From Candidatus Nealsonbacteria bacterium (GTDB lineage: Bacteria; Patescibacteriota; Minisyncoccia; Minisyncoccales; MHMH01): DNA of 64,000 nt. Location of the stretch: positions 16,696-80,695 of the forward strand of contig JBDRKR010000010.1 in the NCBI GenBank assembly GCA_043813805.1. The letters run 5' to 3'. Of the stretch, positions 2,102-45,539 are shown one piece after another. Position 1 is the stretch's first letter. Each line of letters begins with the position of its first letter. The notes under the pieces were generated by a model. It did not search any database. It was given only the letters and a program-made list of their open reading frames with translations, and had not been told where the DNA came from. The position numbers and the translations under genes were made by a program.

Positions 2102-3079
2102 ATGAAAAACACCACTACCAAACATAATACGCCAAGAGATGTCTTTTTGCACCTCTTGAACATCCTTACTTTTTATTTAAGCGTCATCGGTTTTATTACG
2201 CTTTACATCCAGTATATCTCGACTCTTTTCCCGGACCCTCTCAATTTTTATTATACGGCAATAGCTAATGCGGTCAGGGTTTCGACTTCGATGTTTGTCG
2301 TGGCCGTGCCGGTTTTTATTCTGACTTCCTGGCTTTTGGCAAAAGACCTTAAGATCAATCCCGAGAAGCGGGAGGGGAGACTGCGCAAATGGCTAATTTA
2401 TTTAACGCTTTTCATCTCGGCAGTCACCATCATCGTCAACCTGATCATCTTCGTTTATAACTTTTTAAGCGGGGAACTGACGATCCAGTTCTTTTTGAAG
2501 ATTCTGGACGTGCTCTTGGTGGCCTTGGCGGTATTCGGCTATTATATCTGGGAACTGAGAAGAAAGGATGCGAGCACTTCTAAAATACCGAAAATTCTCG
2601 CTTGGGCGCTTTCCTTTGTCGTTGTTGCAAGCATCGTTGCCGGGTTTTTCATTATCGGTACGCCCGGAGAACAGAGAGCGAGGCGTTTTGACGAACAAAG
2701 AGTGGGCGACCTCCAGTCGTTGCAGGGTCAGATCGTCAATTATTGGATTCAGAAAGAGGCCTTGCCTTCGGGTCTTAATCTTCTTGAAGACAGCATTTCC
2801 GGATTTTTCGTGTCCAAAGACCCCGAATCCCAAGCTTCCTACGAATATAATATCTTGAGTCCGCTTTCTTTCGAATTGTGCGCCGAGTTTAAAACCTCAG
2901 TTAAGGATTTTAATGTCGCCTACAAGGGTTCAAGAGTTTTCTATTCAGAGCCCATGTATTACGGCTCATCCTTCCAGCAGAATTGGGATCACGCTGCTGA
3001 AAGAACGTGCTTCGAAAGGACCATCGATCCGGAACTCTACAAACCCAAGCAAATCCCCACAGCGATTCCTACAATATAG
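2102..3079 (+). CDS. Hypothetical polytopic membrane protein (DUF5671-like)
   Basis: Multiple hydrophobic helices in the N-terminal half and a soluble C-terminal half. No catalytic motif recognised. Confidence 0.55.
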   Translation: MKNTTTKHNTPRDVFLHLLNILTFYLSVIGFITLYIQYISTLFPDPLNFYYTAIANAVRVSTSMFVVAVPVFILTSWLLAKDLKINPEKREGRLRKWLIYLTLFISAVTIIVNLIIFVYNFLSGELTIQFFLKILDVLLVALAVFGYYIWELRRKDASTSKIPKILAWALSFVVVASIVAGFFIIGTPGEQRARRFDEQRVGDLQSLQGQIVNYWIQKEALPSGLNLLEDSISGFFVSKDPESQASYEYNILSPLSFELCAEFKTSVKDFNVAYKGSRVFYSEPMYYGSSFQQNWDHAAERTCFERTIDPELYKPKQIPTAIPTI

Positions 3080-3100
3080 CTTACAATAATACTGCAGCTA

Positions 3101-3130
3101 AAATGAAAGAGGTTAAACCTCTTTCATTTT
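3101..3130. repeat. Copy 1 of a 30-bp dispersed palindromic repeat (AAATGAAAGAGGTTAAACCTCTTTCATTTT), terminator-like
   Basis: Perfect inverted repeat with a 5-nt loop, followed by a T-run. Similar copies occur at 9541, 10976, 19507, 23815 and 43655. Confidence 0.8.
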
Positions 3131-3197
3131 TGTTACTTGCTTTTTTAGGGAATAGGCGTATGATGAAAGCAGAGGTTAACTTTTGGGAGCACGTATT

Positions 3198-3416
3198 ATG
3201 ACCAAAAAACAGCAATTTTTATCAGAACACAACCGATTGGCCTCTTTCGACATGCAAGCGACAGCTTCCATGCTGACTCTTTTTAAAACAGAAAAACCGG
3301 CTATTTTTAAAGACAATAACTGGTCCACAGAAAAACTGCGCAGGCCTTTCATTTTCTGGATGACATCCTTGACTCCCAAAGAAAAAGAAGATTTTATCAG
3401 GGCCGAGAAAGCGTAA
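3198..3416 (+). CDS. Hypothetical small protein (72 aa)
   Basis: ATG preceded by GGGAG. Upstream is TTGCTT-N16-TATGAT. Downstream is the hairpin gcccc-gtga-agggg plus a T-run at 3443-3470. This is preferred over the overlapping minus-strand ORF 3176-3421. Confidence 0.4.
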   Translation: MTKKQQFLSEHNRLASFDMQATASMLTLFKTEKPAIFKDNNWSTEKLRRPFIFWMTSLTPKEKEDFIRAEKA

Positions 3417-3503
3417 TTCATTAATTTAATATTTTCAAACAGTCAGCCCCGTGAAGGGGTTTTGTTGTTTACGAAATCAAATCGAACGTGTAAGATATAT
3501 ATT

Positions 3504-6161
3504 ATGATGAAAAAAACCCAAAAGTTTATTTATTATTTCGGAGGCAAAAAAGCCGAAGGTTCCAAAGACATGAAGGATTTGCTGGGCGGCAAAGGAGCTA
3601 ATTTGGCGGAGATGATTAATTTGGGCATTCCGGTTCCGCCCGGGTTTACCGTCACCACAAAAGTCTGCAATTATTCTTATCAATATAAGGGCAAATTGCC
3701 TCAGGGATTCGATGTTCAGTTCAAAAAGACGGTCGAGAGATTGGAGAAAGAAGCCGGCAAAAAACTGGGCGATGCCAAAGATCCTTTATTGGTGTCGATC
3801 AGAAGCGGTTCGAAGTTTTCCATGCCCGGCATGATGGATACGATTTTAAACCTGGGGTTAAACGACGAAATCGTCGAGGGTCTGGCTGTAAAAACAAAAA
3901 ATCCGAGATTCGCCTTCGACGCTTACCGGAGGTTCATTCAAATGTTCGGCAATATCGTTTTGGCCGTACCCAAAGAAGAATTCGAGCATATTTTAACCAA
4001 GAGCAAGGAGGCGCTGGGCGTTAAGTTTGATACCGAGATTCGCGAAGAAGGTTTAAAAAATATCATCGCTCAATACAAAGCTTTAATTAAGCGCAAAACC
4101 AATTCTGAAATTCCTCAAGATGTTTTGTGTCAATTGGTTATGGCTCGCGACGCTGTTTTTAAGAGCTGGGGCAATCCGCGGGCTGTTACTTACCGCAGAT
4201 TAAATAAGATTTCCGAGAGCTTGGGCACGGCCGTTAATGTTCAGGTAATGGTTTTTGGCAATACGGGTGATACCGGCGCCACGGGGGTCGGATTTACGCG
4301 CGATCCTTCAACCGGCGAGAAGAAATTTTACGGCGAGTATCTGACCAATGCCCAAGGCGAGGATGTTGTAGCCGGCATTCGCACTCCAAAACAGATTACC
4401 AATTTGGCTCAAGAAATGCCCGCTATTTTCAAGCAGCTTTTGACCGCTACGACTCGTTTGGAAAAACACTATCGCGATATCCAGGATTTTGAATTTACCA
4501 TTGAAAATGGAAAGCTGTTTTTATTGCAGACGAGAACCGGCAAAAGGACCGCGGCCGCCGCCGTCAAAATCGCCGTTGATATGGTGAAAGAAAAATTGAT
4601 TACTAAAGAAGAGGCTTTGATGCGCATCGATCCCGATCAAATCAATCAATTATTGCATCCTATTATTGATCCTAAGGCAAAAGTTAATGTTATCGCCAAA
4701 GGTCTGCCGGCTTCTCCCGGAGCGGCTTCGGGCAAGGTTGTTTTTACGGCCGATAAAGCGGTGCAACTGGCTGATGAAAAATTAATTTTAGTCCGCACGG
4801 AAACCTGTCCCGACGATATTCACGGCATGGATGCGGCCCAGGGTATTTTAACGGCCCGGGGCGGCATGACGAGTCACGCCGCGGTCGTGGCTCGCGGCAT
4901 GGGCAAGTGCTGCATCGCCGGCTGCGAAGAAATAAAAATTAATGAAGCAAAAGGAGAGTTCCGTGTCGGAAATATTATTGTCAAAGAAGGGGATGTAATA
5001 ACCTTGGACGGCAGCACGGGTCGGGTGATTTTAGGAAAAGTGCCGACCATCGATTCGGCGTTAAGTTCAGAATTCAATTATCTGATGGACATTGTCGATA
5101 AAACCAAGAAATTGGGAGTCAGAGCCAACGCCGATATTCCCAGGGACGCCAAAACCGCCAGGAAGTTCGGAGCTCAAGGCATTGGGCTCTGCCGCACCGA
5201 ACACATGTTTTTTGACGAAGCTCGCCTGCCGATAATGCAAAAAATGATTTTATCGGAAGACGAAGCTTCGCGAAGAAAAGCTTTGCAGGAATTGCTGCCT
5301 TTCCAGAAAGAGGATTTTAAGGGCCTGTTCAGCGAAATGGAAGGGCATGCCGTAACAATCAGAATGATTGATCCGCCGTTGCACGAATTTTTGCCGAAAA
5401 ATGAAATTGAGGCGCAAAAGCTTTCCGAAAAAATCGGCATACCTGCGGCCAAGATTTTAGCCAAGTCAGACGAGCTCCATGAAGTAAATCCTATGCTCGG
5501 GCACCGGGGCTGCCGTTTGGGAATCACTTATCCCGAAATCACGGAAATGCAGACAAGGGCTATTATTTCTGCCGCCTGCGAATTGTACAAAGAAAAAAAG
5601 ATCAGGGTTGTCCCTGAAATCATGATTCCCTTGGTGGGCGATGTAGCTGAATTTAGAAATCAAAAAGAAATCGTCGACAGGGTGGCTATGGAGGTCATGA
5701 AACAATACGGAGCCAAAATAATTTATACCGTGGGCACGATGATTGAGGTTCCCAGGGCGGCCATTACCGCCGATAAGATTGCCAAAGAAGCCGAATTCTT
5801 TTCTTTCGGCACAAACGACCTGACTCAAATGGGCATGGGATTTTCGCGGGATGATGCCGCCAAATTCACTAAAGTATATCTGGAAAAGAAGATTCTTAAA
5901 GCCGATCCGTTCCAAACCTTAGATCAAGAGGGTATTGGGCAACTTATAATTTTGGGGATTAAAAAGGGCAGATCTGTGAAAAAGAATCTGAAAATAGGCA
6001 TTTGCGGAGAGCACGGCGGCGATCCGGAAAGCGTCAAATTCTGTCATAGAGCCGGCATGGATTATGTCAGCTGTTCGCCCTACCGGGTTTCTATTGCGAA
6101 ATTTGCCGCCGCTCAAGCGGTCATCGAAGATAAGCTGAAAATCGAATATACTTCCAAATAG
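3504..6161 (+). CDS. ppdK: Pyruvate, phosphate dikinase
   Basis: GGKGANLAEM ATP-grasp motif, central phospho-His domain (GGMTSHAAVVARG) and C-terminal PEP-utilising TIM barrel. Start moved to the internal ATG at 3504, which fits the PPDK N-terminus. Confidence 0.93.
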   Translation: MMKKTQKFIYYFGGKKAEGSKDMKDLLGGKGANLAEMINLGIPVPPGFTVTTKVCNYSYQYKGKLPQGFDVQFKKTVERLEKEAGKKLGDAKDPLLVSIRSGSKFSMPGMMDTILNLGLNDEIVEGLAVKTKNPRFAFDAYRRFIQMFGNIVLAVPKEEFEHILTKSKEALGVKFDTEIREEGLKNIIAQYKALIKRKTNSEIPQDVLCQLVMARDAVFKSWGNPRAVTYRRLNKISESLGTAVNVQVMVFGNTGDTGATGVGFTRDPSTGEKKFYGEYLTNAQGEDVVAGIRTPKQITNLAQEMPAIFKQLLTATTRLEKHYRDIQDFEFTIENGKLFLLQTRTGKRTAAAAVKIAVDMVKEKLITKEEALMRIDPDQINQLLHPIIDPKAKVNVIAKGLPASPGAASGKVVFTADKAVQLADEKLILVRTETCPDDIHGMDAAQGILTARGGMTSHAAVVARGMGKCCIAGCEEIKINEAKGEFRVGNIIVKEGDVITLDGSTGRVILGKVPTIDSALSSEFNYLMDIVDKTKKLGVRANADIPRDAKTARKFGAQGIGLCRTEHMFFDEARLPIMQKMILSEDEASRRKALQELLPFQKEDFKGLFSEMEGHAVTIRMIDPPLHEFLPKNEIEAQKLSEKIGIPAAKILAKSDELHEVNPMLGHRGCRLGITYPEITEMQTRAIISAACELYKEKKIRVVPEIMIPLVGDVAEFRNQKEIVDRVAMEVMKQYGAKIIYTVGTMIEVPRAAITADKIAKEAEFFSFGTNDLTQMGMGFSRDDAAKFTKVYLEKKILKADPFQTLDQEGIGQLIILGIKKGRSVKKNLKIGICGEHGGDPESVKFCHRAGMDYVSCSPYRVSIAKFAAAQAVIEDKLKIEYTSK

Positions 6162-29522: not shown

Positions 29523-30122
29523 ATGAAAAACATCATTCTTATTGCCGTTTTAATTTTAATCGCCGTTGCTTCGGTTTACTACTTCGGTTTTTACCAAAAG
29601 AAAACCATCGGAGAACCAGCGGGAGGGGAAAACCAAAATCAAAATACGGGCCTGGCCAATCCGGCCTCAGTTAACTGCGAGAATCAGGGCGGAGCGGGCG
29701 AAACCAGGATGTTTGCCGGCGGGCAAAGAGGGTTTTGTTTATTTCCCGACGGTTCACGGTGCGATGAATGGGATTTATACCAGGGTTACTGTGCCAAGGG
29801 CCTGCTGAAAATAGAGGTTTTAAAACGAGGATCCGGAGTTTTGGCGGAGGAGGGCAATACGGTGAGCGTTCATTATACCGGTACCTTATCAGACGGCACG
29901 AAATTCGATTCGAGCATAGACCGGGGCCAGCCTTTTTCTTTTACCTTAGGCGAGGGACGGGTGATCGCGGGCTGGGAACAGGGGGTTTTGGGGATGCAGG
30001 CGGGTGAAAAAGTAAAACTGACGATTGCCCCTGAACTTGGTTACGGGCCATCGGGAGCCGGCGGGATTATTCCGCCCAACGCCACGCTGATTTTCGAAGT
30101 GGAACTTTTGGAGATTAATTAA
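29523..30122 (+). CDS. FKBP-type peptidyl-prolyl cis-trans isomerase, membrane-anchored, with a DUF333-like Cys-containing N-terminal module
   Basis: The C-terminal FKBP core has GDTVTV.Y.G.L.DG..FDSS, G.VI.GW..G and ATL.F.V.L motifs. Confidence 0.8.
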   Translation: MKNIILIAVLILIAVASVYYFGFYQKKTIGEPAGGENQNQNTGLANPASVNCENQGGAGETRMFAGGQRGFCLFPDGSRCDEWDLYQGYCAKGLLKIEVLKRGSGVLAEEGNTVSVHYTGTLSDGTKFDSSIDRGQPFSFTLGEGRVIAGWEQGVLGMQAGEKVKLTIAPELGYGPSGAGGIIPPNATLIFEVELLEIN

Positions 30123-31682: not shown

Positions 31683-31997
31683 TTATTTCCTCAAAATTTT
31701 CGGTACGGGCAAGCCGAGTTTCCCGAGATTATCCAATATTGAGCCGGCTAAAGCAAGAAGAATCAGCCAATAAGCCAGAGTCACCATTATGGACAGAGAG
31801 GGCAGAGCTGAACCTACCGCCGAAATGACAGCAAAACCGAAGACATAAACCAAAACACCCCTCTTCATAAAGCCGGCCACCTTTCCCAAGACAAATGTTT
31901 TCTTTATGAGGGCCACGATGATGCCCAAAACAACGTCAACTCCTATTAGAGTGACAATCATTTGAACTTGACTGGTAGCTAAAATTTCTATAAACAT
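31683..31997 (-). CDS. Small membrane protein (holin-like?)
   Basis: Two to three TM helices in 104 aa with a basic C-terminus. Confidence 0.4.
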   Translation of the reverse strand: MFIEILATSQVQMIVTLIGVDVVLGIIVALIKKTFVLGKVAGFMKRGVLVYVFGFAVISAVGSALPSLSIMVTLAYWLILLALAGSILDNLGKLGLPVPKILRK

Positions 31998-32206: not shown

Positions 32207-32410
32207 ATGAAAATTATAGGTTTAATAGCAGTCATCTTAGTTGTCATCGGAGGGTTGAATTGGGGGCTTATCGGTTTTTTTAAATATGACTTGGTGGCGA
32301 CGATTTTCGGCGATATGACCACGACAACGCGCGTCATCTACGCTTTAATCGGACTCGCCGCGCTTTCCAAGCTGTGTATGTGCAAGAGGCACTGCTGTAA
32401 GGCAGAGTAA
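32207..32410 (+). CDS. DUF378 family small membrane protein
   Basis: GGLNWGLIGFF motif in a 67 aa two-TM protein. Confidence 0.65.
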   Translation: MKIIGLIAVILVVIGGLNWGLIGFFKYDLVATIFGDMTTTTRVIYALIGLAALSKLCMCKRHCCKAE

Positions 32411-32487
32411 GCTTTAGAATGTTTAGCAAACGAAATGACTCCGCTTGGCGGGGTCATTTTCGTTGACAGAGTAACTCCGAGTGTTAT

Positions 32488-32520
32488 AGTCAAAAATACA
32501 GTTGATCTTTGAACAAATTA
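32488..32520 (+). promoter_or_regulatory. Promoter TTGACA-N17-TATAGT for the rSAM operon
   Basis: cgttgacagagtaactccgagtgttatagtc, followed by AAGGAGG and the ATG at 32536. It is preceded by a terminator hairpin at 32436-32462. Confidence 0.65.
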
Positions 32521-32535
32521 TAATAAGGAGGCAGA

Positions 32536-33552
32536 ATGCGAAGAAAACACCAGTTGCGCGTAGCGGTGCTTGAGACGACTAATCGCTGCAATCTTAATTG
32601 TTTGATTTGCGGGTCCGGTTCCGGGAATAAATTGAATCCAAAAGAACTTGATGGGCTCGAATGGTGCGGGGTAATCGGCGAGCTGGCTGATATGGGCGTA
32701 AGGAAAATCTTTTTCAGCGGCGGAGAGCCGACCTTGAAGCCGGGCGTTGAGGAGATGATCAATCTCGTTGCCGATCTGGATATAAACTGGGGCATGGTTT
32801 CGAACGGCCTTTATGTCCCAGAAAATCTGCTTGATCTTTTTGAAATGCGCAAACCCGTGGCTATAGGGTTGAGCGTCGACGGATTGCAGGAGACGCACAA
32901 TATGTTGCGTAAGAATCCCAACAGTTTCCGGATGGTTCTGAGGTATCTCAAAGAATTTCAGAAAAGGGAAATTCCCTGCAGCGTTATAACCACCATCCAT
33001 AAGAGGAATTGGCGCGAATTGTTCAACATTGCCGGATTCGTTCTGGAAAACAAAATCTACGGCTGGCAGATTCAACTGGCTATGCCGTTTGGCCGCATGA
33101 AGGAGAGTCCCGATCTTTTATTGTCGCAAGAAGAATTCTTGCAAGCCTGTTTGATGGTGGAGAAAATCAGAAAGATAATGCCCGAAGTGAATATTGCGGC
33201 CGCCGATTGCTTTGCCTGGGCGCCTTCCGGAAAAATCAGAAACGGCCAATGGCAGGGCTGCAGTGCGGGCTTGGAGTCGGTAGGCATAGATGCTTTAGGT
33301 AATGTCAGAGGTTGCCTTTCCATGACCGAATGCGTGCCCGAGGGAAACGTCAGAGAGAGGAGCTTTTCTCAAATCTGGCAGGATGAGAGCTTATTTTCTT
33401 ACAACCGCAAGTTCAATCCACAGAACACTTCGCCCGTCTGCCAAGGGTGTCCTAAAATAATGAGGTGCCGGGGCGGGTGCAATAGTCAGTCGTTTTCCAT
33501 GACCGGCAAGTTCCAGCAAGGAGCTTACTGTTGGTACAAATCAAGAAAATAG
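32536..33552 (+). CDS. Radical SAM enzyme with C-terminal SPASM domain (peptide-modifying maturase class; no N-terminal RRE)
   Basis: CNLNCLIC (CxxxCxxC) at residues 18-25. Gly-rich SAM motif FFSGGEPTL. The C-terminus has seven Cys in SPASM spacing (C..GC...C...CQGCP...CRGGC). Confidence 0.85.
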   Translation: MRRKHQLRVAVLETTNRCNLNCLICGSGSGNKLNPKELDGLEWCGVIGELADMGVRKIFFSGGEPTLKPGVEEMINLVADLDINWGMVSNGLYVPENLLDLFEMRKPVAIGLSVDGLQETHNMLRKNPNSFRMVLRYLKEFQKREIPCSVITTIHKRNWRELFNIAGFVLENKIYGWQIQLAMPFGRMKESPDLLLSQEEFLQACLMVEKIRKIMPEVNIAAADCFAWAPSGKIRNGQWQGCSAGLESVGIDALGNVRGCLSMTECVPEGNVRERSFSQIWQDESLFSYNRKFNPQNTSPVCQGCPKIMRCRGGCNSQSFSMTGKFQQGAYCWYKSRK

Positions 33553-33566
33553 AGGAGGTGAAAAAG

Positions 33567-34031
33567 GTGAGTAGAGATACGGTTTTCAAGTATGGGCCGT
33601 CCGAACCGAGTTGGACGCCGCCGCCGAGCCGGCTGATGATAATCAAATATGGCCCGCCGGAACCGCGACCGCCGATATTTGATAAATACGCTCCAATCGA
33701 ACCGTGCAAGCCCGGAGTTAAGCCGAAAGAGAAGGAAGACAAGAGAGAAAAAGAAATCCAGTTTATTTCAAATCAAATCACCGAGTGCCTGAAGAAAATC
33801 GAGAAGCTTCTGGAGAAAATTGAGCTTTTGGCGGTGCGTAGGCAAAATATCGATGAGGTGAATATCGAACTCGGCTCTTGCATTGCCGAACTGGCATTGT
33901 TGCACGCGAAATTGTCCGACCTGCAGAAACCGGTCGAGAACGTGGTGATGGAGATGCCGCGCGGGAAAACCGACAGGGGTTTCATCGCCTATATCGTCAC
34001 TGCGCCAGCCCGACCGACAAAGAAAGAATAA
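33567..34031 (+). CDS. Repeat-containing protein encoded directly downstream of, and coupled to, the rSAM/SPASM gene; candidate substrate
   Basis: GAGGAGG lies 8 nt before the GTG at 33567. Three tandem peptide repeats occur: FKYGPSEPSW, IKYGPPEPRP and DKYAPIEPCK. Their DNA differs at synonymous positions. The C-terminal half is predicted helical and a terminator follows at 34040-34075. Confidence 0.5.
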   Translation: MSRDTVFKYGPSEPSWTPPPSRLMIIKYGPPEPRPPIFDKYAPIEPCKPGVKPKEKEDKREKEIQFISNQITECLKKIEKLLEKIELLAVRRQNIDEVNIELGSCIAELALLHAKLSDLQKPVENVVMEMPRGKTDRGFIAYIVTAPARPTKKE

Positions 34032-34152
34032 ACAGAACAAAAAAGGCGTTCTTACTAAAAGGACGCCTTTTTCGTTGAAGCAGTTGACAAAAAGTAGTAT
34101 GTTTGCTATGATAGTCACATAAGATATCTCACCTTAGCCGCGAACAGATTTA

Positions 34153-37276: not shown

Positions 37277-38278
37277 ATGAAATTAAAAGATTTGTCAAAA
37301 GGTAAAATAGTGATTTACAAAACCCCAAAGGGGCCGGAGCTTGAAGTGCGACTTAAAGAGGAAACAGTTTGGCTTACGCAAAAAGAGATTGCCAAGCTTT
37401 TTAGAAAGGGTGTGCCCGCTATAAATGAGCACGTCAAGAATATTTATAAAGAAGGTGAGTTAGATCAAAAATCAACTATTCGGAAATTCCGAATAGTTCA
37501 AACTGAGGGGAAGCGTCAGATTGAGCGTGAAATAGATTTATATAATCTTGATATGATTCTTTCCGTTGGCTATAGAGTTAGTTCCAAGCGTGCCACTCAG
37601 TTTCGTATTTGGGCGACAAAAACACTAAAAAATTATTTGCTCAATGGTTACGCCATTAATCAGAAAATGTTATTAGACGCAAGAGAGAAATTCGCCGGCT
37701 TACAAAGAACCATTTCTTTTTTACAACAGAAGTCAAAAAATGATTTATTGACCGGTAAAGAGCAAGAAATTATCGATCTTCTTTCCGGTTATTCAAAAAC
37801 CCTCACACTTCTCGAGCAATACGATACCAATACTTTAAAAATTGTAACCGGCAGAAAAGCGGTATTCGCACTGGAGTACAACGATGTCCAAAAAATCATA
37901 GAAGGGATTAAAAGAGGGCTTCTGGCCGCCAAGGAGGCCGGTGATTTGTTTGGTCAAGAATATCAGGGCAAGCTGGAAAGTATCGTAAAAAATCTCTATC
38001 AAACATTCGACAAAAAAGAACTTTATGGCAGTATTGAGGATAAGGCCGCTCATCTTTTGTACTTGATTATAAAGGATCATCCATTTGCCGATGGCAATAA
38101 ACGGATAGCTTCTGTTTTGTTTATTCATTTCTTAAAAAAGAATGATTACCTTTATCGAGAAGGCGGAGAAAGGAAAATTAACGACAATGCGTTGGTTGCT
38201 TTGGCGCTTCTCATTGCTGTAAGCAATCCCACAGAGAAAGAAACAATGATTAAGATAATTACTAATCTCTTAAAATAA
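37277..38278 (+). CDS. RhuM-family N-terminal domain fused to a Fic/Doc domain (HPFADGNKR)
   Basis: The N-terminus matches the RhuM virulence-protein family consensus (GYRVSSKRATQFRIWATKTLKNYLLNGYAIN). The C-terminus has the Fic/Doc active-site motif HPFADGNKRIA. Confidence 0.7.
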   Translation: MKLKDLSKGKIVIYKTPKGPELEVRLKEETVWLTQKEIAKLFRKGVPAINEHVKNIYKEGELDQKSTIRKFRIVQTEGKRQIEREIDLYNLDMILSVGYRVSSKRATQFRIWATKTLKNYLLNGYAINQKMLLDAREKFAGLQRTISFLQQKSKNDLLTGKEQEIIDLLSGYSKTLTLLEQYDTNTLKIVTGRKAVFALEYNDVQKIIEGIKRGLLAAKEAGDLFGQEYQGKLESIVKNLYQTFDKKELYGSIEDKAAHLLYLIIKDHPFADGNKRIASVLFIHFLKKNDYLYREGGERKINDNALVALALLIAVSNPTEKETMIKIITNLLK

Positions 38279-43776: not shown

Positions 43777-44538
43777 ATGGCTAATTTAAAAAACAAAGTA
43801 GCGGTTGTTACCGGGGCAAGAAGAGGAATGGGTCGGGCTCATGCTTTGGCATTGGCGAAAGCCGGAGCTAAAGTCGTGGTAGCCGATATTGCCTTAGAAG
43901 AATGCGAAAAAGTCGTTCAAGAAATTAAAAAAATCAAGGGCGAGGCGATTGCTATAAAATGCAACGTTACTAAAAAAGCAGAAGTGGATGCGATGATTCA
44001 AGCGGCCGTAAAAACATGGGGTAAGTTAGATATTTTGGTTAATAACGCCGGTATCGCCGAGTTTGCACCCTTCTTGCAAATGACCGAAGCGGAGTGGGAT
44101 AAAACCATTAATATTAACTTGAAAGGATATTTTCTTTGCGCTCAAACAGCGGCCAAAGAAATGGTAAAACAAAAGTCGGGAGCAATCGTTAACATCGCTT
44201 CGGTCGCAATGGGACAAATCGGAGTCGGATTTCCCAATCTTGCCCATTATTGCGCCTCCAAGGGCGGCATCGTGGGCATGAGTGAAGCGATGGCTATTGA
44301 ACTCGCTCCTTATAATATCCGAGTTAATGTCGTTTCTCCGGGAGCTATTGATACTCCTATGATTGATCCGATTAAGCAAGATAAAGCCTCGATGGAAGGT
44401 ATTTTGGGCCGAGTGCCTCTTCGTCGCGTAGGTAAACCCGAAGAGGTGGCGAATGCCGTTTTATTTTTAGCTTCAGATGACTCTTCGTATATAACAGGTT
44501 CTGTTGTGGTGGTTGACGGCGGTTGGTTAGCCGCTTAA
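43777..44538 (+). CDS. Short-chain dehydrogenase/reductase (FabG-like)
   Basis: TGARRGMG, NNAG and YCASKGG catalytic tetrad region. Confidence 0.85.
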   Translation: MANLKNKVAVVTGARRGMGRAHALALAKAGAKVVVADIALEECEKVVQEIKKIKGEAIAIKCNVTKKAEVDAMIQAAVKTWGKLDILVNNAGIAEFAPFLQMTEAEWDKTININLKGYFLCAQTAAKEMVKQKSGAIVNIASVAMGQIGVGFPNLAHYCASKGGIVGMSEAMAIELAPYNIRVNVVSPGAIDTPMIDPIKQDKASMEGILGRVPLRRVGKPEEVANAVLFLASDDSSYITGSVVVVDGGWLAA

Positions 44539-44540
44539 AT

Positions 44541-45539
44541 ATGGCACAGGATATTATTGCCAAACTTAAAGAAAGCAAACTTTTGGGCCGGAGCGGGTCG
44601 GGTTTTCCGACAGGCTTCAAATGGGAGATGGTGAAAAATGAAAAGGCCGTCAAGAAATATATTGTTTGCAACGCCGCTTCGGGCGAGCCGAAAGTGATGA
44701 AAGACGAATATCTTTTAGAAAACCATGCCCAAGAAGTTGTCGAAGGCATAAAAATAGCGCTGGAAACATTTGAAAACAGCGAGGCTTTCATTTATCTGAG
44801 GAAAGATTTTTACGCTAAATTTAAAGACAACTTAACCGAGTTAACCAAAGGGCTGCCTATTACTCTTATAAAAAAGCAGGGGGGCTACTTGGCCGGCGAG
44901 GAAACGTGCCTGTGCGAAGCCATTGAAGAGAAAACTCCCGAGCCCAGGATTAAGCCGCCTTTCCCGACACAGGCCGGACTTTTCGGCCGTCCCACCTTGA
45001 TTAATAATGCGGAGACTTTCTATCACATTTCGCAAATCGCTCAAAATAAATACAAAAATACGCGTTTTTATACCATTGGCGGCCAGGTAAAGAAGAAAGG
45101 AGTTTTTGAAATGCCCGCGGATTGGCCGATTGAAAGAGTTTTGAAAGAAACCGGCAATTGGCCCAAGTTCGATTTCTTCGCCCAGGTGGGCGGAGGAGCG
45201 AGCGGCGAGATTCTTCTGCCTGATGAATTACAAAAGCCGGCCGGAGGGACGGGGGCGATTATTATATATGAAAAGAAGAAAACGCAGTGCTTAAAACTTA
45301 TGAAAGAATGGGCCCAGTTTTTTCTTGAACAGAACTGCGACAAGTGCACGCCGTGCCGCGAAGGAGTTTTCAGGATAAACGAGATGCTAGGTAAGGGAAA
45401 AATTGACGAAAAAACCCTGCAAGATATCGTTAATAATTTAAAAGAAGCGAGTTTTTGCGGATTAGGAAAAATCGCAGGCATTCCTTTTTCCAGATTCGCA
45501 AATAAAATATGCAAATCACTTTTAACGGAAAAAAAATAG
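44541..45539 (+). CDS. NuoF/HydB-like flavoprotein subunit (NADH-binding, FMN and 4Fe-4S)
   Basis: GRSGSGFPTGFKW, CNAASGEPKVMKD and CDKCTPCREG motifs. Start set to the ATG at 44541, just after the SDR stop. Confidence 0.8.
   Translation: MAQDIIAKLKESKLLGRSGSGFPTGFKWEMVKNEKAVKKYIVCNAASGEPKVMKDEYLLENHAQEVVEGIKIALETFENSEAFIYLRKDFYAKFKDNLTELTKGLPITLIKKQGGYLAGEETCLCEAIEEKTPEPRIKPPFPTQAGLFGRPTLINNAETFYHISQIAQNKYKNTRFYTIGGQVKKKGVFEMPADWPIERVLKETGNWPKFDFFAQVGGGASGEILLPDELQKPAGGTGAIIIYEKKKTQCLKLMKEWAQFFLEQNCDKCTPCREGVFRINEMLGKGKIDEKTLQDIVNNLKEASFCGLGKIAGIPFSRFANKICKSLLTEKK

Follow-up and report, generated by a model that had tools for sequence, protein, structure and literature searches.

Tyramine spliceases are radical S-adenosylmethionine (rSAM) enzymes with a SPASM domain, which target X-Y-G sequences and excise all of the tyrosine but C1, leaving an α-keto-β-amino amide (PMC5995677, PMC9811515, PMC11414181). 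Several XYG sites in one precursor can be processed (PMC11414181, PMC5995677, PMC11626197), and the splicease types were defined from YG-rich neighbours of rSAM-SPASM proteins, with 27 pairs validated, as far as that work (Scott et al. 2022) is relayed in PMC10849128 and PMC10533398; the spliceases predicted there number 939. The spliceotide systems are PlpX/PcpX (type I), which have a Y protein, and the binary RhaX/RasX/RcsX (type II). In the binary spliceases, which have no Y protein, binding and activation of the enzyme fall to a helix within the precursor (PMC11414181). Models of spliceases put XYG beside the SAM cluster (PMC11414181). Spliceotide ketoamides inhibit serine and cysteine proteases (PMC11626197), and spliceases already serve for site-specific labelling (PMC10533398, PMC11414181). 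Here we describe a two-gene unit on a contig of a Candidatus Nealsonbacteria (Patescibacteria) metagenome-assembled genome, found within the 64-kb stretch that was analysed as a whole and is termed the window below. It encodes an rSAM/SPASM enzyme followed by a small protein with three tyrosine motifs and, judged from its sequence, seems to be a branch of the splicease systems that has not been described. Its main features, all on the forward strand (+) and numbered by window position, are as follows:

32536..33552 (+): gene of the radical SAM/SPASM enzyme, 338 aa, without a recognition element (RRE) for peptides made on the ribosome and modified after translation (RiPPs) and without a C-terminal extension
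32587..32610 (+): CxxxCxxC (C18, C22, C25), site of the SAM-binding [4Fe-4S] cluster
33259..33531 (+): SPASM region with seven cysteines (C242, C260, C302, C305, C311, C315, C332)
33567..34031 (+): gene of the putative substrate protein, GTG start, 154 aa, whose disordered N-terminus with the three Tyr motifs is followed by a helical hairpin and then a basic tail
33582..33608 (+): motif copy 1, VFKYGPSEP (Y9), residues 6-14
33639..33665 (+): motif copy 2, IIKYGPPEP (Y28), residues 25-33
33678..33704 (+): motif copy 3, FDKYAPIEP (Y41), residues 38-46
33723..33926 (+): helical hairpin, residues 53-120 in the AlphaFold2 model (predicted local distance difference test score, pLDDT, 82-92), proposed by analogy as a docking/activating element
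33981..34016 (+): C-terminal motif FIAYIVTAPARP (Y142), with Y142 kept in at least 90% of sequences

The window enzyme, like those of the spliceotide systems, is an rSAM protein with a full SPASM domain, and the small protein, like spliceotide substrates, has X-Y-G sites followed by hydrophobic or proline residues: ..ALYGLPPE.. of Nostoc and the PlpA tag PIRPLYGLPI (PMC10533398) are comparable to IIKYGPPEP of the window. The original prediction, made from the sequence alone, had held that the motif matched no family that could be named; K-Y-G is, however, a case of X-Y-G, the target of tyramine spliceases (PMC11414181, PMC5995677), and the window carries two KYG sites and one KYA site. As in the binary (type II) spliceases, the pair has no Y protein and there is a helix in the substrate (PMC11414181). 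The Y protein, a PqqD-like activator confined to type I, was sought as a third gene, and none lies within the unit or is conserved at the related loci; its absence does not exclude membership, because binary types are known (PMC11414181). The product may remain a protein, as in some spliceotide systems (PMC11626197). Unlike those systems, the window pair has neither a Nif11 nor an NHLP leader, its sites are N-terminal and repeated, and its clade occurs in Patescibacteria and archaea, where neither a protease nor an exporter lies nearby.

A second parallel is found in the GDL/DUF1843 system, where an invariant tyrosine site (XY[G/A/M]) lies within the first 6-14 residues and is followed by a helical domain; the sites of the Azospirillum and Aureibacter peptides read MLYGG, KPYGV, PMYMA, VLYAAG, PMYAAS and QPYGAG. 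The core-first order of the window protein, regarded in the original prediction as the reverse of the usual one, therefore has a precedent in the GDL/DUF1843 peptides beside TIGR03913 and related maturases. The GDL system has one site per peptide and three tandem genes, whereas the window has three sites in one protein, and the GDL enzyme is 474-516 aa in length with a long C-terminal extension that the 338-aa window enzyme lacks. Homology of the partner family to DUF1843 was rejected (hhalign probability 0.2%), so that the resemblance is architectural only, and membership in the GDL/TIGR03913 system was likewise rejected, the enzyme scoring 127.1 bits against a cut-off of 591.75 and the partner having no Pfam match. 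No experimental report on the GDL system was found in the literature search.

The co-occurrence of the small protein with an rSAM enzyme is obligate. When the small protein is the starting point, all seven contigs that reach upstream have an rSAM homologue, or the 3′ end of one, directly before it (loci L001, L002 and L063-L067; at L002 this is a stretch of 46 bp encoding ..QGVYCWYK, the rSAM 3′ end), and five further relatives lie on contigs of the same size as those of independently found rSAM homologues. Starting from the enzyme, genome and metagenome scans queried with a 24-sequence alignment gave about 50 rSAM loci, and the next gene bears the motif at the loci of at least about 42% identity whose contig reaches downstream (L001, L003, L005-L013, L017, L018, L020-L024, L026-L028, L030 and L050, several of them copies of one contig). 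A motif partner is also present in four of some twenty less similar loci (L014, L037, L033 and L036, the partners of L014 and L037 being identical). The flanking genes vary among the lineages with the pair, and no protease, transporter or immunity gene stands beside it in any lineage. The neighbourhood check proposed with the original prediction, whether homologues of the small protein are always accompanied by an rSAM gene, has thus come out in its favour, with seven of seven where the neighbourhood is visible and none alone. These data support a stand-alone, conserved pair of an rSAM/SPASM enzyme and a repeat-bearing partner with RiPP-like logic. In the form seen in the window, the small-protein family is rare: a profile search of 1.84 billion representative proteins returned only 15 relatives.

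The partners of the enzyme clade fall on three unrelated scaffolds:

Type A: 1-4 N-terminal sites and a helical hairpin; the window and its relatives, with an added C-terminal site in L007 and L022
Type B: short peptides with one C-terminal site; MIKYAPIGR and LIKYAPIKPR of Buchananbacteria, L008 and L009
Type C: a ~130-aa unrelated domain, after which comes ..LIKYSLAEKK, ..VFRYSLVEK or ..VVRYALPDP; includes the two-module archaeal proteins of L014 and L070

The only element conserved over these scaffolds is the short Tyr motif, the fixed point of which is the tyrosine. Motif statistics were drawn from 59 sites in 30 proteins, the tyrosine itself being fixed by the search pattern; one degenerate repeat (P0128), outside this count, has histidine in its place. 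Position −1 is K in 50 sites, R in six, L in two and S in one, and position +1 is G in 39, A in 13 and S in seven, so that the family holds 39 YG, 13 YA and seven YS sites. Proline occupies position +2 in 40/59 (with G in the KYGG of L023) and position +5 in 51/59, whilst position +4 is E or D in 34/59. A short mobile motif that tracks one enzyme across unrelated scaffolds is what would be expected of a modification site, and on these sequence grounds the small protein is probably the substrate of the rSAM enzyme.

Further Tyr-rich genes stand beside more distant homologues. The archaeal partners at L014 (2660-3649) and L070 (3570-4481) each contain two copies of the ~130-aa domain (..FAFNR.FAD..), every copy being followed by an [IF]RYSL site; this domain has no match in Pfam or NCBIfam, and eight partner proteins from related loci, scanned against the same two databases, brought no meaningful match. 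At L041 (1662-2986) three tandem paralogous open reading frames (ORFs) of 121-124 aa, directly upstream of a 35%-identical rSAM homologue (2992-4008), each hold GGYPYAATGLA inside a hydrophobic segment and, by sequence, resemble a further family of Tyr-motif substrates within this enzyme superfamily. At L035 (2661-2885) and L068 (2265-2486, a Methanofastidiosia archaeon) the rSAM homologues are immediately preceded by ORFs of 73-74 aa, which are homologous to each other and end in ..VLVYLLPPEIPDDP and ..PPYLYVPPPAE, a Tyr-Pro-Pro-Glu context like ALYGLPPE of Nostoc and KYGPPEP of the window, but with Leu or Val after the tyrosine. At L069 (2129-2344, minus strand) a 71-aa ORF with five GGAYF[TN]T repeats is divergent from an rSAM homologue of 36% identity. 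Among annotated homologues of the window clade, the one with the best score (L055, 3013-4167; Agathobacter rectalis NZ_CP143948.1, a plasmid-collection entry; 31.6% identity, 336 bits) belongs to a human gut Firmicute, where it adjoins a major facilitator superfamily transporter, lies directly downstream of fusA and tuf, and has no annotated Tyr-motif partner.

The small protein is 99% identical to NCBI protein ABIG29_01195, whose annotation starts at TTG 33531. GTG 33567 is the likely start codon and is preferred because it has a Shine-Dalgarno sequence and because homologues begin at the matching position (MVFKYGP.., MRSMVFKYGP..). This start, with GAGGAGG 8 nt upstream, is that of the original prediction, which put it 15 nt after the first gene; the gap is 14 nt. 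A regular expression for the motif matches three times in the ~29,800 residues of the all-frame window ORFs, each time in the small protein. Codons of the three repeats (aag/aaa/aaa, tat/tat/tac, ggg/ggc/gct, ccg/ccg/cca) differ mainly at synonymous positions, as had been noted earlier together with the three tandem N-terminal copies, and this supports the selection on the motif at peptide level that had been proposed from it. A single cysteine in the third repeat had also been described: C47 is indeed the sole Cys of the N-terminal 50 residues, but it follows repeat 3 and is not conserved.

In the AlphaFold2 model, built from a 16-sequence alignment, the N-terminal 52 residues are predicted to be unstructured (pLDDT 50-57), helices span residues 53-91 and 95-120, and the basic tail is again unstructured, which bears out the helical C-terminal half foreseen earlier. 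The sites lie in the low-confidence, unstructured segment and would hence be accessible. Within the hairpin L109 and L112 are invariant, and L82, E108 and L116 are kept in at least 90% of sequences. Beyond it the family has a conserved C-terminal motif, φφxY[IV][VA]xxPA[KR]P, in which Tyr and Pro are spaced (Y-x4-P) just as they are in the N-terminal sites. At the position of the Y142 motif a true KYG or RYG site occurs in relatives L007 and L022, and the Y-I-V..P motif could represent either a site that has degenerated or a strand used in docking. The small protein has no signal peptide and no Pfam, NCBIfam or PDB relative, the PDB search with the partner profile returning designed coiled coils only.

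Pfam places the Radical_SAM domain at residues 13-168 of the enzyme (E 1.8e-20) and SPASM at 242-306 (E 1.5e-07). The CxxxCxxC motif is C18-x3-C22-x2-C25, and no N-terminal RRE is possible because C18 lies only 17 residues past the start. All ten cluster cysteines (C18, C22, C25 and the seven of SPASM) are invariant among the 24 closest homologues; across 53 homologues C25 and the SPASM seven remain invariant, and C18 and C22 are kept in at least 90%. The ORF, the Pfam domains and this conservation confirm the earlier description of a 338-aa, RRE-free rSAM enzyme with CxxxCxxC at residue 18 and a complete seven-Cys SPASM domain. The C-terminus comes six residues after the last SPASM cysteine. 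W239 stands directly ahead of the SPASM region, with Q178 and Q180 (a W-Q-x-Q motif) further upstream; these three and G250 are invariant or nearly so in the clade and in the splicease-type (PlpX/GDL-type) references, and are missing from all three outgroups (TIGR04133, PqqE and MftC). A PDB profile search with the enzyme found only distant rSAM structures (SkfB, PqqE, SuiB and anSME, the last at 53.7 bits; YydG scored 31 bits) and no splicease structure.

The enzyme clade shows affinity to the splicease families. NCBIfam results for the window enzyme are given as its best 25 matches, families outside these having E > 1.8e-14, and no curated family cut-off is reached:

TIGR04133: 148.7 bits, cut-off 425; top single match, residues 3-314
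TIGR04103: 143.6 bits, cut-off 725; E 6.4e-42, residues 5-335 on model positions 2-345 of 412
NirJ2: 128.5 bits, cut-off 500
TIGR03913 (GDL maturase): 127.1 bits, cut-off 591.75
AhbD: 105.9 bits
MftC: 102.6 bits, cut-off 265
PqqE: 94.7 bits, cut-off 381
WgkB (Trp-Lys crosslinker): 94.5 bits
StsB: 73 bits; DynA: 71 bits; PapB (ranthipeptide): 59 bits

The XyeB, GrrM and FxsB (cyclophane), streptide-type and anSME models are not among these 25. When 53 clade members were scanned, every one of them matched TIGR04103, whose E (1.4e-77) is the best of any family and is followed by those of TIGR03913 (4.3e-70) and TIGR04133 (6e-57); the heme-type families fall below the splicease families, and the gap to the crosslinkers widens. 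Searching in the other direction, the window-clade profile gave these scores:

Agathobacter homologue: 336 bits
Aureibacter enzyme (DUF1843-associated): 306 bits
Nostoc TIGR04103 enzyme: 291 bits
Azospirillum GDL enzyme: 272 bits
TIGR04133: 216 bits
PqqE and MftC: ~139 bits

The Nostoc enzyme, a plasmid-encoded protein annotated as TIGR04103 by the Prokaryotic Genome Annotation Pipeline, served as stand-in for PlpX/RhaX. Entry IPR026482 we take to be the same family as TIGR04103. PlpX is assigned to IPR026482 (PMC11002830). On the Nostoc plasmid the TIGR04103 protein lies beside a Nif11 precursor ending in ..GSIALYGLPPELF (..IALYGLPPELF) and a 71-aa Y-like ORF, by sequence a textbook type I spliceotide locus. 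In a single neighbour-joining tree without support values, and with few outgroups and none from NirJ/AhbD, the TIGR04103 and GDL references fall within the wider homologue set and TIGR04133 outside it; PqqE and MftC are the most distant references in both profile scores and tree. The expectation that the enzyme would lie outside the cofactor-maturase clades is upheld by these results, no NCBIfam cut-off being reached and PqqE and MftC being distant. As candidates, anSME was rejected (no model among the best 25, and no (C/S)xPxR motif in the partner), as was a PqqE/MftC cofactor maturase (scores below the cut-offs, and no PqqA/PqqD or MftA/MftB neighbours). TIGR04133, the rSAM/SPASM family with an associated lipoprotein in Bacteroidales, differs in that its partner is a 280-aa lipoprotein encoded upstream and without the motif. 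The literature search found nothing on TIGR04103, TIGR04133 or SPASM-linked RiPPs of Patescibacteria.

From this sequence evidence it is conceivable, and tentatively preferred here, that the pair is a binary splicease-like system which converts its K-Y-G sites to α-keto-β-lysine. The rSAM/SPASM enzyme would bind the small protein, probably via the helical hairpin, which we infer to be a docking or activating element by analogy with the precursor helix described in PMC11414181. The enzyme's target would then be the tyrosine in every exposed φφ-K-Y-[G/A]-P-x-E-P site of the disordered N-terminus, the likeliest chemistry being that of its nearest characterised relatives, the tyramine spliceases. 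Excision, started by a 5′-deoxyadenosyl radical, would remove the tyrosine and spare just its carbonyl carbon (a loss of C8H9NO, 135.07 Da), the backbone would be rejoined as an α-keto-β-amino amide, and the product would hold up to three α-keto-β-lysine residues per protein. As no protease or exporter is linked and no signal peptide is present, this product would stay a modified, probably intracellular, protein. Basic ketoamides are classical warheads against trypsin-like serine and cysteine proteases. For this reason the most plausible role, again by analogy, would be that of a multivalent protease inhibitor or trap bearing its ketoamides on a flexible arm (cf. PMC11626197).

Several points weigh against the splicease-like assignment. 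The enzyme scores 143.6 bits against the TIGR04103 cut-off of 725, with TIGR04133 slightly higher for the window protein; it is only 26-31% identical to the reference enzymes (26.5% to that of Nostoc), and it lacks the post-SPASM extension of 80-150 aa seen in the four aligned PlpX/GDL-type references. A third of the sites are YA or YS, not YG, and in more distant relatives a bulky residue (L, V, F or M) follows the tyrosine, as in the motifs VLVYLLPPE, PPYLYVPPP, GGAYFTT and GGYPYAATG. The near-invariant K/R at −1 is unlike the known splice sites (M, L, D or G), and this lysine could take part in the chemistry. The affinity tree, being one neighbour-joining tree of the kind described above, adds to these reservations. 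The splicease-like assignment is nonetheless the leading one on sequence evidence and supersedes crosslinking, though the enzyme falls short of the TIGR04103 cut-off, a curated measure of membership.

The original prediction had taken an rSAM enzyme with repeats for a crosslinking RiPP system; its maturase and repeat-bearing substrate stand, whereas crosslinking no longer leads, TIGR04103 being the best match of the clade. Tyr-directed crosslinking, in which a C-C or C-O bond would join the Tyr ring and a nearby residue, is now a doubtful alternative. Its candidates are a three-residue Tyr-Gly-Pro cyclophane of the triceptide type or a Lys-Tyr link, with a small ring and a change of −2 Da per repeat. 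Short repeated aromatic motifs beside an rSAM/SPASM enzyme, with several sites per precursor, are indeed typical of the multi-site crosslinkers of the triceptide (XyeB, GrrM, FxsB), streptide and WGK types; K/R at −1 in 56/59 sites, like Pro at +2 and +5, might serve as a partner or shape the conformation, and the non-Gly residues at +1 suit a crosslink better than the known XYG rule. Such systems usually have an RRE and a C-terminal core, and the window enzyme has no RRE. WgkB is a moderate match and the exception amongst these families, the others lying outside the best 25, and DynA and PapB stand at 71 and 59 bits against 144 for the splicease family. The would-be partner residues also vary, with L or S at −1, G at +2 in the KYGG of L023 and an acidic residue at +4 in 34/59 only. 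That last count also led to rejection of a PqqE-like Tyr-Glu crosslink as the general mechanism. PqqE, too, is an rSAM/SPASM enzyme acting on tyrosine, in the Glu-Tyr crosslink of PqqA in pyrroloquinoline quinone biosynthesis; the spacing in PqqA is E-x3-Y, which the window's Y-x3-E mirrors, but no PqqD or other pqq gene lies by the unit. Thioether (sactipeptide/ranthipeptide) chemistry was rejected, the repeats having no conserved cysteine and C47 not being conserved.

Somewhat less probable, and unlikely in our estimate, is another, possibly undescribed, radical modification of the tyrosine or the preceding lysine, such as epimerisation, β-hydroxylation, Cβ-H functionalisation or a rearrangement that is related to splicing but has another outcome; the Tyr-motif superfamily would then not be uniform in its chemistry. 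It would fit with a clade that reaches no curated cut-off and has no C-terminal extension of the PlpX/GDL kind, with the varied +1 residue (G, A and S; L, V, F and M in relatives) and with a conserved C-terminal Y-I-V motif that is not an XYG site. Set against it, the rSAM epimerases of the PoyD and YydG types either lack this SPASM architecture or score very low (31 bits for YydG in the PDB search), and no positive evidence favours any specific alternative chemistry. To a similarly low degree we entertain that the reaction of the Patescibacterial/archaeal clade is centred on Tyr, affects the backbone or a side chain, and corresponds neither to canonical XYG splicing nor to a known crosslink; it may, for example, be assisted by Lys/Arg, accept Ala, Ser and bulkier residues behind the tyrosine and take place at multiple sites of a cytoplasmic protein. 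It is very improbable that the small protein is an accessory or scaffold beside an rSAM enzyme of cofactor type (NirJ/AhbD-like, tetrapyrrole) or with a target encoded elsewhere: NirJ2 and AhbD (128.5 and 105.9 bits) are among the better NCBIfam matches and the hairpin could be chaperone-like, as Y proteins are (PMC11414181), but the short Tyr motif alone is conserved over three unrelated scaffolds, which points to a substrate site, no tetrapyrrole genes occur among the scanned neighbours and the heme-type families rank below the splicease families across the clade.

The pair forms a self-contained unit, with its own promoter-like site and hairpin and with a separate promoter-like site for the downstream helicase gene. 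The boundary and initiation signals are:

32463..32490 (+): sigma-70-like promoter, TTGACA, 16-nt spacer and TG-extended TATAGT; 11/12 consensus positions, pattern match only
32525..32531 (+): Shine-Dalgarno sequence AAGGAGG of the rSAM gene, 4 nt ahead of ATG 32536
33552..33558 (+): Shine-Dalgarno sequence GAGGAGG of the second gene, overlapping the last base of the rSAM stop and 8 nt ahead of GTG 33567
34036..34076 (+): intrinsic terminator hairpin, AAAAAGGCGTTCTT-loop-AAGGACGCCTTTTT; ΔG −20.2 kcal/mol, z = −5.06

Promoter-like sites are no commoner in the region than in shuffles. The rSAM gene ends with TAG at 33550-33552. The hairpin, which a simple terminator scan had overlooked, has a 14-bp G+C-rich stem between an A-run and a T-run, and 0/200 shuffles fold as well. 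Downstream come a promoter-like site (34084-34112) and a DEAD-box helicase gene. The earlier view of a promoter-to-terminator unit of only two genes agrees with this layout.

Upstream of the unit lie an FKBP-type prolyl isomerase fused to DUF333 (29523-30122), a lone minus-strand gene of the Phage_holin_4_1 family (31683-31997) and a DUF378 gene (32207-32410). The presence of a prolyl isomerase close to a Pro-rich putative substrate may be coincidence. The close relatives L001, L003 and L066 retain the FKBP and DUF378 genes, plus a DUF456 gene, and amongst them only L001 retains the holin gene; L005 and L006 are without all these neighbours. Recent horizontal acquisition was considered and rejected, since the G+C content of the unit (0.485-0.497) is not distinctive against 0.38-0.50 across the surrounding 14 kb, and vertical descent is favoured because of the synteny with close relatives. 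Elsewhere in the 64-kb window the likely-gene ORFs of at least 120 aa are nearly all on the forward strand, and both the tRNA and the Rfam scan were empty. An ORF at 37277-38278 joins an N-terminal RhuM virulence-family segment to a C-terminal Fic/DOC domain in a stretch of lower G+C content (0.38-0.40), and another at 44523-45539 is NuoF-like (Complex1_51K FMN-binding domain and NADH_4Fe-4S) in a Patescibacterial genome.

The genomes of Candidatus Patescibacteria are roughly 1 Mb in size, and we know of almost no secondary metabolism in them. If the KYG sites are spliced, ribosomal β-amino-acid (ketoamide) chemistry, of which the literature search found none in this group, would be added to its repertoire. 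The pair would then be a minimal, leader-free splicing system of two genes, with a 338-aa enzyme and a repeatable site of ~9 residues, and would be attractive for protein engineering, where spliceases already label proteins. A ketoamide derived from Lys would give the protein a warhead of its own against trypsin-like proteases, which suggests how epibiotic cells might blunt the proteases of a host or phage. If the chemistry differs, the movable Tyr motif on three unrelated scaffolds would offer a clean entry to a new rSAM reaction, and a Tyr-centred reaction of the clade's own would amount to genetically encoded protein-backbone editing for cell physiology in ultra-small symbionts.

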